A DNA stretch of 64,000 bases, from assembly GCA_965208325.1 (NCBI GenBank), contig OZ242326.1, forward strand, positions 3,456,001 through 3,520,000, written 5' to 3'. The stretch is from Candidatus Poribacteria bacterium. GTDB taxonomy: Bacteria > Poribacteria > WGA-4E > PCPOR2b. Positions within the stretch are counted from its first letter, which is position 1; every line of letters begins with the position of its first letter. A program made the position numbers and the translations under genes. Under the pieces are notes generated by a model. The model had not been told where the DNA came from. It saw nothing but the letters and a program-made list of their open reading frames with translations, and did no database searches. This document shows positions 1 through 8,545 of the stretch, one piece after another.

Positions 1-430
1 CTTCATCGGTGCTACCAAATCCCCCGCGCGTCTTCGAGTGGGTCTCCGACACTTCCATCCAATCTGCCTGATCGACCCGGACGAAAATCGCCTGCGCAAT
101 CCTATCGCCGCGCTGTATCGTTACCGTCTGCTCCGAAAAATTGTAAATTTGAATCTTTACCTCATCGTCTTCGCCGCAGTAATCCTGATCGATGACGCCA
201 ACCCCGTGCGGGATGAGCAACCCGCGTTTGCGAGGCGTGCTGCTGCGCAACGTCACCATCAACATATACCCCGGCGGGGTTTCAACGATGACATTCGCGG
301 GTACTAGCCCCAATGTGCGCGGTTTAATCGCCACCGATTCTCGGCATACCAAATCAAAGCCGACGGAACCGGCGGTTGCATATTGCGGTAGCGGCAGGTT
401 CTTGTCCAGCCGTTTGATTTTAACTTTCAT
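1..430 (-). CDS. dut: dUTP diphosphatase (3' end runs off the window; not in the ORF track)
   Basis: Manual translation from ATG at 430: MKVKIKRLDKNLPLPQYATAGSVGFDL...LRSS...GVIDQDYCG...GDRIAQ...RGGFGST, which shows the trimeric dUTPase motifs. Confidence 0.93.
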   Translation of the reverse strand, partial: MKVKIKRLDKNLPLPQYATAGSVGFDLVCRESVAIKPRTLGLVPANVIVETPPGYMLMVTLRSSTPRKRGLLIPHGVGVIDQDYCGEDDEVKIQIYNFSEQTVTIQRGDRIAQAIFVRVDQADWMEVSETHSKTRGGFGSTDE

Positions 431-482
431 CAAATACCCATGAATCAAAGGTCGCCGCTAACGGGAATGAACCCAATTTATT

Positions 483-1275
483 GATGAGAAACCGAGTTTT
501 TTTCTTCAAAACTCGGTTTCTTCTTAATACGTTAAGGCACGGGAATTCCGGCTACCTTGCACTCCACGCGATAAATTGAAGTAGACGCCGTGATGAAAAG
601 CGATTTCCAATCACCGCCGCCCCAAGCCAGATTGGCTGTGCCGATGCAAAACCGAGTTTTTTCTTCAAAACTCGGTTTCTTCTTAATACGTTAAGGCACT
701 TGAATTCCCGAAACCTTGCACTCCACGCGATAAATTGAAGTAGACGCGGTAATGAAAAGCGATTTCCAATCCCCGCCGCCCCAAGCCAGATTGGCTGTGC
801 CGATGAGAAACCGAGTTTTTTCTTCAAAACTCGGTTTCTTTGATGTGCGTTAAGGCACCGGAATTCCGGATACCTTGCACTCGACGCGATAAATTGAAGT
901 GGACGCTGTGATGAAAAGCGATTTCCAATCCCCGCCGCCCCAAGCCAGATTGGCTGTGCCGATGAGAAACCGAGTTTTTTCTTCAAAACTCGGTTTCTTT
1001 GATGTGCGTTAAGGCACCGGAATTCCGGATACCTTGCACTCGACGCGATAAATTGAAGTGGACGCTGTGATGAAAAGCGATTTCCAATCCCCGCCGCCCC
1101 AAGCCAGATTGGCTGTGCCGATGCAAAACCGAGTTTTTTCTTCAAAACTCGGTTTCTTCTTAATACGTTAAGGCACTTGAATTCCCGATACCTTGCACTC
1201 CACGCGATAAATTGAAGTAGACGCTGTAATGAAAAGCGATTTCCAATCACGCCCGCCCCAAGCCAGATTGGCTGT
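483..1275. repeat. Tandem array, 159-bp period x5: palindrome plus the last 35 codons and stop of the SMP-30 gene
   Basis: TTAAGGCAC at 532, 691, 850, 1009 and 1168. Each is preceded by AAACCGAGTTTTTTCTTCAAAACTCGGTTT. The last unit is the real gene end. Confidence 0.97.
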
Positions 1276-2052
1276 AATTTCCGGTATTTTTATGATGCCG
1301 AGGTGTTTACCCGATGCATCGAAAATCCAAACTCCGCCAGGCCCCGTCGCATAAAGGTTGCCCCGCACGTCAACCTTCATTCCGTCCGGCACACCATTTT
1401 CTCCAGATTCCTCGGCGAAAACTCGGCCGTTTCCAAGCGTGCCGTCGGGTTGAAGGTCAAAAGCGCGAATGTGCATTCGGGCGGTATCATCAACGTATAG
1501 AATCGATTCGTCCGGCGAGAAGCAAAGTCCGTTAGGGCGGTCAAAATCATCGGCGAGAAGCGTCAGAGTCCGGCAATCAGCGGACAGCCGATAGACGCCT
1601 TGGAAGCCGAGTTCTTGCCCTTTGGTTTCCCCATCATCATCCATGATGCCGTAAGGCGGGTCGGTAAAGTAGATGCTCCCATCCGATTTCACAACCACAT
1701 CGTTCGGGCTGTTCAACCGCTTTCCGTTATAGTGCGCGGCGATTGAGATGATTGTCCCATCGGCTTCCGTTCGTGAGACACGGCGGTTCCCATGTTCGCA
1801 TGCAATCAGCCGCCCCTGTTTATCATAAGTCAAACCGTTCGAGCTTCCCGATGGAGATCGGAAGTTTGTGATTCCGGAATCGGGGCTCCACCGTTTTATC
1901 TGATTTGCGGGAATGTCACTGAACAGCAGATACCCCGCCCCGGCGTTCCAGAGCGGTCCCTCGGTAAACTGGCACCCTGATCCAAGCCGCTCGGCCTGCG
2001 CGTCAGCGTCGACCAAATCCAACAGTTCCGGAGATCGAACTTCAATGCTCAA
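1168..2052 (-). CDS. SMP-30/gluconolactonase/LRE family protein
   Basis: Motifs EGPLW, SNGL, LNSPND, PNGLCFSPD, PDGMKVD, TANLAWGG. Likely TTG start at 2052 after AGGAG. Confidence 0.92.
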   Translation of the reverse strand: MSIEVRSPELLDLVDADAQAERLGSGCQFTEGPLWNAGAGYLLFSDIPANQIKRWSPDSGITNFRSPSGSSNGLTYDKQGRLIACEHGNRRVSRTEADGTIISIAAHYNGKRLNSPNDVVVKSDGSIYFTDPPYGIMDDDGETKGQELGFQGVYRLSADCRTLTLLADDFDRPNGLCFSPDESILYVDDTARMHIRAFDLQPDGTLGNGRVFAEESGENGVPDGMKVDVRGNLYATGPGGVWIFDASGKHLGIIKIPEITANLAWGGRDWKSLFITASTSIYRVECKVSGIQVP

Positions 2053-2416: not shown

Positions 2417-2493
<77 letters not shown>

Positions 2494-6860: not shown

Positions 6861-7231
6861 ATTGGGAGTGTGGGATGACTCGAAAAGCAGTGGAAAACAA
6901 CCCCTACAATTTCAGCCATGACCTCGGATGGTGCGGTTACCAACCGCACCGTCGGACGGTAATAACACTCATTGGTATGTAGGAGAGGCTTCCTAGCCTC
7001 GATTATCAATCGGTTTTTGTAGATCGGGTTAAGCGATCAACTGAGCAAATTGCGAGTGATTAGCAAGCGCGATAGAGATTCTCAGGTCTATACAACGCGG
7101 ATACTCCACGCACCAAAGCGCCAGCGGCGCGAAAGGTATATAGCATGCGGAGGCACCAAATATCCAAAGCCCCAGCGGGGCGACAGGTGTGTCTGTGAAT
7201 TGTCAAGCGAACCTAGCTTTGGAGGTACATA

Positions 7232-7462
7232 ATGAGCCAAGACGAATTAAGCCCCGACATCTACAAAGAAACACTTGAATTTCTGCGAATTGCCAATCGT
7301 GCCGTCAAAAGAGCGCAGGAAGAAAACCGCAAAAAAGGCATCCCAAACGTCTATTCTTATAACGGTCACATCTACTACGAGCTGCCGAACGGCGAACTGA
7401 CCAAGGACGATCCCCTCAAAGATGCAAATAAACCGGATGGAGATAAAAGCTATTGCAGCTAA
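7232..7462 (+). CDS. 76-aa hypothetical protein, copy 1 (resembles small proteins found beside zeta-toxin-like kinases)
   Basis: RBS GGAGG; AVKRAQEENRKKGIPNVYSYNG. Synonymous differences among copies support coding. Family link is from recall only. Confidence 0.8.
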   Translation: MSQDELSPDIYKETLEFLRIANRAVKRAQEENRKKGIPNVYSYNGHIYYELPNGELTKDDPLKDANKPDGDKSYCS

Positions 7463-7724
7463 AACTCATTAATTTACTTATCGGTCTGTGGGAGAGGCTT
7501 CCTAGTCTTTTGTAAGTTGGGTTAAGCGATCAATTGAGCAAATTGCAAGTGATTAGCAAGCGCGATAGAGATTCTCAGGGCTATATAACGCGGATTCTCC
7601 ACGCACCAAAGCGCCAGCGGCGCGAAAGGTATATAGCATGCGGAGGCACCAAATATCCAAAGCCCCAGCGGGGCGACAGGTGTGTCTGTGAATTGTCAAG
7701 CGAACCTAGCTTTGGAGGTACATA

Positions 7725-7955
7725 ATGAATCAAGACGAATTAAGCCCTGAAACCTACAAACGCACACGTGAACTACTGCGAATTGGCAATCGCGCCGTCA
7801 AAAGAGCGCAAGAAGAAAACCGAAAAAAAGGCATCCCAAACGTCTATTCCTATAACGGTCACATCTACTACGAGCTACCGAACGGCGAACTGACTAAGGA
7901 CGATCCCCTCAAAGATGCAAATAAACCGGATGGAGATAAAAGCTATTACAGCTAA
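7725..7955 (+). CDS. 76-aa hypothetical protein, copy 2 (divergent N-terminus)
   Basis: As copy 1; MNQDELSPETYKRTRELLRIG. Confidence 0.8.
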   Translation: MNQDELSPETYKRTRELLRIGNRAVKRAQEENRKKGIPNVYSYNGHIYYELPNGELTKDDPLKDANKPDGDKSYYS

Positions 7956-8233
7956 AACTCATTAATTTACTTATCGGTCTGTGGGAGAGGCTTCCTAGCC
8001 TCGATTATCAATTGGATTTTCTAGGTTGGGTTAAGCGATCAACTGAGCGAATTGCGAGTGATTAGCGAGTGCGATAGAGATTCTCAGGGCTATTCAACGC
8101 GGATTCTCCACGCACCAAAGCGCCAGCGGCGCGAAAGGTATATAGCATGCGGAGGCACCAAATATCCAAAGCCCCAGCGGGGCGACAGGTGTGTCTGTGA
8201 ATTGTCAAGAGAATCAAGCTTTGGAGGCACACA

Positions 8234-8464
8234 ATGAGTCAAGACGAATTAAGCCCCGACATCTACAAAGAAACTCTTGAAATTTTGCGAATTGCCAATC
8301 GTGCCGTCAAAAGAGCGCAGGAAGAAAACCGCAAAAAAGGCATCCCAAACGTCTATTCTTATAACGGACACATCTACTATGAGCTGCCGAACGGCGAACT
8401 GACCAAGGACGATCCCCTCAAAGATGCAAATAAACCGGATGGAGATAAAAGCTATTGCAGCTAA
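8234..8464 (+). CDS. 76-aa hypothetical protein, copy 3
   Basis: As copy 1, with one amino-acid change (F17I). Confidence 0.8.
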   Translation: MSQDELSPDIYKETLEILRIANRAVKRAQEENRKKGIPNVYSYNGHIYYELPNGELTKDDPLKDANKPDGDKSYCS

Positions 8465-8545
8465 AACTCATTAATTTACTTATCGGTCTGTGGGAGAGGC
8501 TTCCTAGCCTCGATTATCAAATAGTCGATACCTCCTTGCGCAAAT

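Follow-up and report, generated by a model that had tools for sequence, protein, structure and literature searches.

In the account by Bertels & Rainey (2011, PMC3116915), the tandem REP/REPIN clusters of Pseudomonas fluorescens SBW25 include flanking sequence besides the repetitive extragenic palindromic (REP) element: flank, REP and flank follow one another head to tail, in few copies and over several hundred bp, only some of the genomes holding the REP family have such clusters, and the gene for the REP-associated tyrosine transposase (RAYT) is flanked by its own REPs. For rhs genes, Jackson et al. (2009, PMC2935791) set out a model in which incoming DNA recombines via homology and shunts the incumbent gene end to a silent downstream position. 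At e14 of Escherichia coli K-12, as described in PMC13626634, the housekeeping gene icd is followed downstream by icdC, a start-less C-terminal fragment; most of the differences between the two are synonymous, and recombination can bring the fragment into the gene. Here we describe a locus with likenesses to all three, in a 64,000-nucleotide stretch (the window; contig OZ242326.1, positions 3,456,001 to 3,520,000) of a Candidatus Poribacteria genome. A gene for an SMP-30/gluconolactonase/LRE-like (SGL) protein is followed there by four start-less copies of its own 3′ end, each joined to a REP hairpin, and the copies differ from one another as the ends of working genes would.

The SGL array shares with the SBW25 clusters each of the features just listed, whereas those clusters are presented as extragenic with nearly identical units, and in the SGL array 108 of the 159 nt of a unit are coding, the units differ by up to 8% and the differences have a protein-coding signature. 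Like rhs C-terminal displacement it has an intact gene followed by start-less 3′ pieces homologous to that gene; the rhs pieces, however, are described as non-homologous toxin tips with immunity genes, in a setting of diversification, whereas the SGL tails are near-identical enzyme ends in 159-nt units with no cargo gene. The likeness to icd/icdC lies in the start-less downstream fragment, the mostly synonymous changes and the proposed exchange by recombination; at icd, as reported there, a 15-kb prophage with site-specific recombination separates the two gene ends, whereas the SGL ends are 51 nt apart, four copies are stacked and no integrase is present. REP and RAYT systems more generally have, as here, a short hairpin in tens of copies, a transposase gene flanked by it and near-identical copies across the genomes of a family, but the RAYT-like open reading frame (ORF) of this genome scores just under the NCBIfam cut-off (74.4 vs 80). 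Silent-cassette systems such as pilS and vls hold many amino-acid variants, unlike the SGL units with three single-residue differences only. What would be new here is the combination of REP-associated tandem amplification with the proposed recombinational displacement of gene ends, both being of known kinds; a limited literature search found no published account of REP-bounded arrays with gene ends, which is weak evidence of absence.

The gene was identified by its match to Pfam PF08450 (E 3.1e-56); its longest ORF spans 1168-2085, with the stop codon at 1168-1170 on the minus strand, and the database holds an identical protein of 294 aa (P0001) and thousands of homologues. Tandem Repeats Finder (TRF) placed the array at 483-1275, where it counted 5.0 copies of a 159-nt period that match at 93% and are free of indels. 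The array consists of five head-to-tail units on the minus strand, by type A, B, B, A′ and C, of which the first is the SGL gene's own end:

1168-2052, minus strand: SGL gene, the expressed copy, 294 aa as in the database proteins.
1117-1275, minus strand: unit 0, the expressed tail, with its stop at 1168-1170, spacer CGTATTAAGAAG, REP hairpin and joint TTGCATCGGC.
1126-1155: REP hairpin of unit 0, with a 12-bp stem and a 6-nt loop.
958-1116, minus strand: unit 1, a silent tail copy of type B, with its stop at 1009-1011.
799-957, minus strand: unit 2, a silent tail copy with its stop at 850-852 and 0 differences from unit 1.
640-798, minus strand: unit 3, a silent tail copy related to unit 0, with its stop at 691-693.
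483-639, minus strand: unit 4, the last silent copy, with its stop at 532-534, adjoining the original downstream flank.
967-996, 808-837, 649-678 and 489-519: the other hairpins of the array, of the same REP.

Each unit is made up of the last 35 codons with TAA, a 12-nt spacer, a 30-nt perfect hairpin and 9 nt that lead to the next unit; 51 nt (spacer, REP and joint) therefore separate one stop from the next tail, and they hold no integrase ORF. No ORF was found between the units, and an Rfam search gave no match in the array. An initial annotation, made from the letters of the window, had described four extra copies of the 35 codons and stop, without a start, at an exact 159-bp period downstream of the gene. 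TRF and our own cut in register agree with it, and in the gene's frame the extra copies have no opening ATG, GTG or TTG, save for one GTG 11 codons before the stop. The period corresponds to 53 codons, and the reading frame through the array is continuous apart from the TAA of each unit. The palindrome between the copies had also been called the same throughout; the hairpin is indeed shared, but the last one has an extra A in its loop, so that the array ends at 483, and the non-hairpin spacer varies at 8 columns among units 0-3, with encoded residues that differ by unit (RIKKK..FC vs RTSKK..FL). All four internal joints read CATC-GGC-ACAGCC, and the gene itself has ATT before ACAGCC.

In a register-exact comparison the units vary at 12 of the 108 coding nt, with nine of these sites in the third codon position, two in the first and one in the second. 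Site 51 (ACA/ACC/ACG) and site 99 (CAA/CCG/CCC) each occur in three states. In the encoded protein the variation is confined to R/G, S/A and Q/P, and neither indels nor additional stops occur; the recount thus reproduces the hand alignment of the initial annotation, including the identity of the copies that stop at 850 and 1009 (units 1 and 2). Pairs of units differ at 0-9 of the 108 coding sites, the tails being 91-100% identical. The probability of at least 9 of 12 variable sites falling at position 3 by chance is 0.0039, and 11 of at least 14 state changes are synonymous, where random mutation would be synonymous with p = 0.257 (P = 5e-5). The expressed unit 0 has R (CGT) and Q (CAA); units 1 and 2 have synonymous states of their own (GTC, TCC and CCG) together with spacer CGCACATCAAAG; unit 3 has G and Q residues and the states ACC and GTT, which are unique to it; and unit 4 has the change from S to A (GCC).

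The amount of divergence was estimated by the Nei-Gojobori method as the proportions of synonymous (pS) and non-synonymous (pN) differences. The distinct units gave pS of 0.15-0.26 and pN of 0.013-0.045 among themselves. Between units 1/2 and the working tail of the nearest species (genome G002), pS was 0.33 and pN 0, with nine changes, all synonymous, and an identical protein; for the rest of the SGL gene, the comparison of the source genome (G000) with G002 gave pS 0.181 and pN 0.025. As the values for the units are comparable to those of the gene body, the units differ in amount and kind like the working orthologues of separate species, and we count the signature of purifying selection among them as established at the level of sequence. 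Judged by their variable sites, the units are also mosaics. In the four-gamete test, site 27 conflicts with sites 48, 90, 98, 151 and 152; unit 4 combines a 5′ half like that of G002 (its sites 1-57 match the tail that works in G002 letter for letter, and the 7-A hairpin loop is likewise the same) with private states, a type-A spacer and the ancestral 3′ flank.

The other long-period arrays of the source genome provided an internal control. TRF returned 184 rows with a period of at least 60; rows below 85% matches or 2 copies were dropped and overlaps were merged, which left 58 arrays, and for each the between-unit variable columns were tested for falling on one phase of three (3 of the 58 had too few columns). 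Three-base periodicity was absent from 49 of the 55 testable arrays, and ordinary arrays of this genome therefore do not gain such a bias by mutation. Of the six periodic arrays, three are contained in ORFs of 3060 or 2415 aa, a fourth lies in an ORF of 262 aa, a fifth is made of ferredoxin genes and the sixth is the SGL-tail array, the only start-less one. These counts, with the probabilities above, uphold the argument of the initial annotation that the wobble bias did not come from neutral decay in place. Three-base periodicity of the differences between units may thus serve as an annotation-free test that separates once-coding repeats from ordinary intergenic arrays. The genome-wide scan for further stop-spanning palindrome arrays that the initial annotation had proposed was run and gave no second clear case in the source genome: in an ORF-end scan over the arrays (13 rows), only the SGL array linked a long ORF of known family to a start-less array, and flank-to-flank similarity around 76 hairpins of this genome returned matches only in arrays already known. 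A larger sample can therefore not come from this genome. The ferredoxin-like array (G000:C1:3163077-3164213; the label is taken from Cys motifs) holds three complete 4Fe-4S gene copies of 85-87 aa with period 396 and periodic differences.

Three genomes of the same genus (G001, G002 and G003, closed or near-closed) have one SGL tail each. In the alignment of G000 with G002 the four extra units fall in a clean gap, the flanks being 90-100% identical in 60-nt windows; the one tail of G002 is followed by this hairpin, its loop having 7 A, and then by the downstream flank seen in G000. In 10 relatives the stop is intact, and all of them end at the position where G000 does; one relative has lost the stop and runs on for 3 codons. 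In G001 the SGL gene ends with TAA changed to TCA and three extra codons to TAG, and only a degenerate half of the hairpin lies downstream. The natural expressed tails were surveyed in 11 full-length proteins that are at least 92% identical; that of G000 itself is R..Q, and the others are as follows:

Tail G..P: 5 proteins; the protein of units 1 and 2; includes P0123 (97.3% identity), and P0122 with an extra change from F to C.
Tail G..Q: 2 proteins (P0003 and P0006); the protein of unit 3.
Tail R..P: 1 protein, with one further change, T to A.
Tail G..S: 2 proteins, one with a further change, E to K.

At the protein level, the tails of units 1-3 thus occur as expressed tails of close natural relatives, and the tail that works in the nearest species has exactly the protein sequence of unit 1. 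None of the 11 close proteins has the A of unit 4, which is present in 12 of 120 listed homologues. A scan of genome contigs by pattern returned one record, with a single tail. A paralogue was considered as the donor of the tail variants and ruled out: the source genome has no close SGL paralogue, its next best SGL genes being at most 36% identical, and hence no within-genome donor of the unit variants. A further protein of the same 90% cluster, P0121 (277 aa), ends in ...SLFITA inside the repeated tail and may be a broken or contig-end copy.

We put at roughly 55% the probability that the array arose by REP-associated tandem amplification and that out-of-register recombination then traded its units for functional alleles from related lineages, the former gene ends being displaced. 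The process would have begun with one illegitimate tandem duplication of a 159-bp segment (gene end, spacer, REP hairpin and 9 nt), which would have left the 3-nt filler GGC; the four identical joints with GGC point to a single founding duplication that was later multiplied by homologous exchange. The duplicate would have been multiplied and reshuffled by unequal homologous recombination between units in shifted register, and the identity of units 1 and 2 indicates that one such exchange was recent. The differences between units would have arisen while each tail was the expressed gene end in some lineage of a recombining group of Poribacteria, and DNA of relatives would have recombined one or more units out of register, setting a new tail on the gene and stranding the old one downstream, much as in the model for rhs genes. 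Import from other strains is suggested by the pS and pN values together with the natural tail proteins; we likewise infer the direction of stacking, and that RecA-type exchange, not the REP transposase, drove the process. The silent copies would be by-products, not translated, with no evident function or physiological role.

The initial annotation had taken each copy for the former end of a functional allele and the array for a record of successive allele capture or replacement, for example by integration of short palindrome-bearing DNA from relatives, or for a set of swappable C-terminal cassettes. The first element of this interpretation holds up: divergence as expressed gene ends fits the orthologue-like ratio of pN to pS, the 9/9 synonymous changes between units 1/2 and G002, the natural tail proteins of units 1-3 and the G002-like first 57 nt of unit 4. 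A cassette function finds no support, because the amino-acid differences amount to three single residues, and separate integration of palindrome-bearing DNA for each unit is unlikely, all four joints being identical. If displacement by recombination is correct, the array is a natural archive of four former gene ends, each diverged like the orthologue of another species, it would be direct and datable evidence of repeated between-lineage recombination in an uncultured sponge symbiont, and it would mean that REP-associated tandem amplification can capture coding sequence.

Several observations weigh against recombinational displacement. The statistics rest on 12 variable sites, and the silent units are matched to expressed tails elsewhere by protein, not letter for letter in DNA; two pattern scans of JGI metagenome contigs gave 0 matches. 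The unit order and number rest on the assembly, as no listed Logan contig spans the array. Two residues of the tail that G000 expresses are rare: R at the ninth tail position (R in 2 and D in 111 of 120 listed homologues) and Q at the third-last (Q in 3 and P in 113 of the 120). Silent units 1/2 keep the common P, which would not be expected if, on a simple view, the expressed copy were the best preserved one. The array could also be old and lost in G002, rather than young. Finally, the difference between type A and type B spacers probably arose in a single block event tied to the REP flank, since it is contiguous and like the usual 5′ flank of the hairpin family. A Fisher test of the spacer (8 of 21 columns variable) against codon positions 1 and 2 (3 of 70; P = 2.5e-4) was discarded as overcounting, because of this probable single event.

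The RNA of the hairpin folds with -19 kcal/mol (z -3.87; 0 of 200 shuffles were as stable), and the hairpin is terminator-like on the plus strand only. With the loop included, the source genome has 70 copies by a strict pattern and 76 by a looser one, and G002 has 37, G003 15 and G001 8; a reversed control pattern gave 0. Copies that are 97-100% identical are found in many genomes of the family. Among G000-G003, tandem arrays of the hairpin were seen in G000 only, where eight other arrays contain it, and none of the hairpin places listed for G002 are closer together than about 900 nt. In addition, an ORF of 188 aa (G000:C1:3321737-3322304) matches the Pfam family Y1_Tnp with 39.4 bits against a cut-off of 23 and the NCBIfam model REP_Tyr_transpos (NF047646) with E 8.5e-21, at 74.4 bits under its cut-off of 80; its match to TnpA-REP (PDB 4er8) is weak (E 0.008). 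The ORF is closely preceded by one hairpin on its 5′ side and followed by three to four tandem copies on its 3′ side (G000:C1:3321590-3322350). The palindrome is a REP element with a linked, predicted REP-associated tyrosine transposase gene, a transposase gene flanked by the hairpin being the classic arrangement for a REP family.

Such a setting raises the idea that a tail with its REP is a minimal non-autonomous mobile cassette. Either the REP transposase or recombination between units would release it as a piece of one unit; it would then enter the same gene of a related lineage, give that gene a new working end and leave the old one stranded. We hold this to be unlikely; were it true, it could mean a widespread and undescribed spread of tiny hairpin elements via the conserved ends of housekeeping genes, with a stack of past alleles as its trace. 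The narrower version, in which the REP transposase itself excises a tail and REP unit beside two successive hairpins and re-inserts it at the same locus of another chromosome or strain, so that the array is a stack of tiny non-autonomous cassettes with replacement ends, seems to us distinctly improbable. The family of about 70 copies and the Y1-transposase gene flanked by the array's own hairpin speak for it, as do the many hairpin arrays of G000, when none of the 37 hairpins of G002 are tandem within 500 nt, and the fact that the SGL array, like several others containing this hairpin, has one end no more than about 10 nt from it. That distance is, however, inconstant (2, 6-7 and 10 nt in several arrays), the REPs of the array are direct repeats and not the inverted doublets that PMC3116915 describes as the mobile form, and among the 76 hairpins of G000 no other lies between a gene end and its displaced copy.

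An independent sequencing run (X1) bears on whether the units could have evolved in place within one lineage, as an old array in which frequent unequal crossing-over exposes every unit to selection and nothing is imported. Pieces of X1 cross the joints at 728-809 (0 differences) and 902-968 (1 difference), so the array exists in at least two strains. The flanks of X1 differ from G000 at 9 of 282 and 20 of 204 letters, and its expressed tail has GGC GGT where G000 has GGG CGT; the interior of the array is more alike between the two than the flanks are. An array common to at least two strains speaks for evolution in place, the identical units 1 and 2 show that unequal exchange occurs, and the mosaic pattern shows exchange between units. 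Exchange that frequent would, however, also homogenise the units, and yet their pS (up to 0.26) reaches or exceeds the 0.18 between species, which makes this explanation less likely. Moreover, hairpin arrays are absent from the three other species of the genus, and in one silent copy of X1 the second position of a codon for a conserved Gly is changed (place 938), which hints at unselected decay. We hold evolution in place to be improbable, slightly more so than transposition.

It is very unlikely that the array is an assembly artefact in which the tails of co-occurring strains were strung together. The source genome is metagenome-assembled, several related lineages exist and the array as a whole lies within no listed Logan contig, all of which would allow for such an error. 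The sequencing runs that hold the stretch mostly carry sponge-metagenome labels, and a search for RNA runs gave none. The genome is, however, a single contig of 4,707,648 bases (49.4% G+C), and the hairpin-to-tail joint, which is impossible in a single-copy locus, occurs with 0 differences in the short-read contigs of three runs from two studies. Logan contigs of runs X16 and X17 match unit-specific stretches without a single difference, among them 718-832, which crosses the joint between unit 3 and unit 2. Pieces from X16 and X17 had depths of 31.5 and 18.8 where the flanks had 16 and 10, and overall the unit-specific pieces had 0.6-2 times the depth of the flanks, not a small fraction of it, coverage at a fraction of chromosome depth being what the initial annotation had associated with misassembled strain variants. 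Cover holes at 874-955 and 1038-1119 in both runs are uninformative, because units 1 and 2 are identical.

The neighbouring genes are as follows:

2-448, minus strand: dUTPase gene, directly downstream of the array and cut by the window start (Pfam PF00692, E 1.8e-25).
2417-2493, minus strand: tRNA-Arg(CCG), upstream of the SGL gene, listed for context only.

The dUTPase gene is the downstream neighbour in G002 too. That the extra copies are functional, through read-through of the stop, an antisense small ORF, or a role as multiple terminators or untranslated region for the dUTPase gene, is as hard to credit as an assembly error. The frame is open through the array save for the TAA of each unit, and each unit has an antisense ORF (33-37 aa) that shares its third positions with the gene. 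Against read-through, the residues encoded by the spacer vary between units (RIKKK..FC vs RTSKK..FL), and the 10 of 10 relatives with an intact stop end here, the single stop-loss running on for 3 codons only. The antisense small ORFs were rejected since most variable sites (9 of 12) fall outside the ATG-started antisense ORF, and no promoter-like site was found on the minus strand inside the array. A 232-aa ORF in another frame (552-1250, minus strand), which exists because the period is a multiple of three, was likewise rejected as a gene: Pfam gave no match for it, and its second codon position is the one at which the units vary. A diversity-generating retroelement was also discarded as an identity for the array, as the changes include G/C, C/G, T/G and T/C and are not adenine-specific; at the sites that distinguish units 0 and 1, the letters of unit 1 are C, G, G, C, C, C, C, C and G.

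Weakest of all, and extremely unlikely, is an ordinary slippage array under neutral decay whose few differences happen to lie on third positions: there are only 12 variable sites, some adjacent and perhaps not independent, but chance has P = 0.0039 by position and 5e-5 by synonymy, the other 49 of 55 arrays lack such a bias, and the bias persists when G002 (9/9 synonymous against units 1/2) and X1 are added.

Two further repeats were recorded. The window holds a second tandem array at 7015-8508 (period 493, 3.0 copies, 92% matches) with other REP-like motifs, in which the variable columns fall on the three phases as [18,10,14] (from an overlapping 509-nt row) and show no three-base periodicity. 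The TRF rows also include a CRISPR-like array at G000:C1:3307604-3310507, whose repeats are about 37 nt long and recur about every 73 nt.

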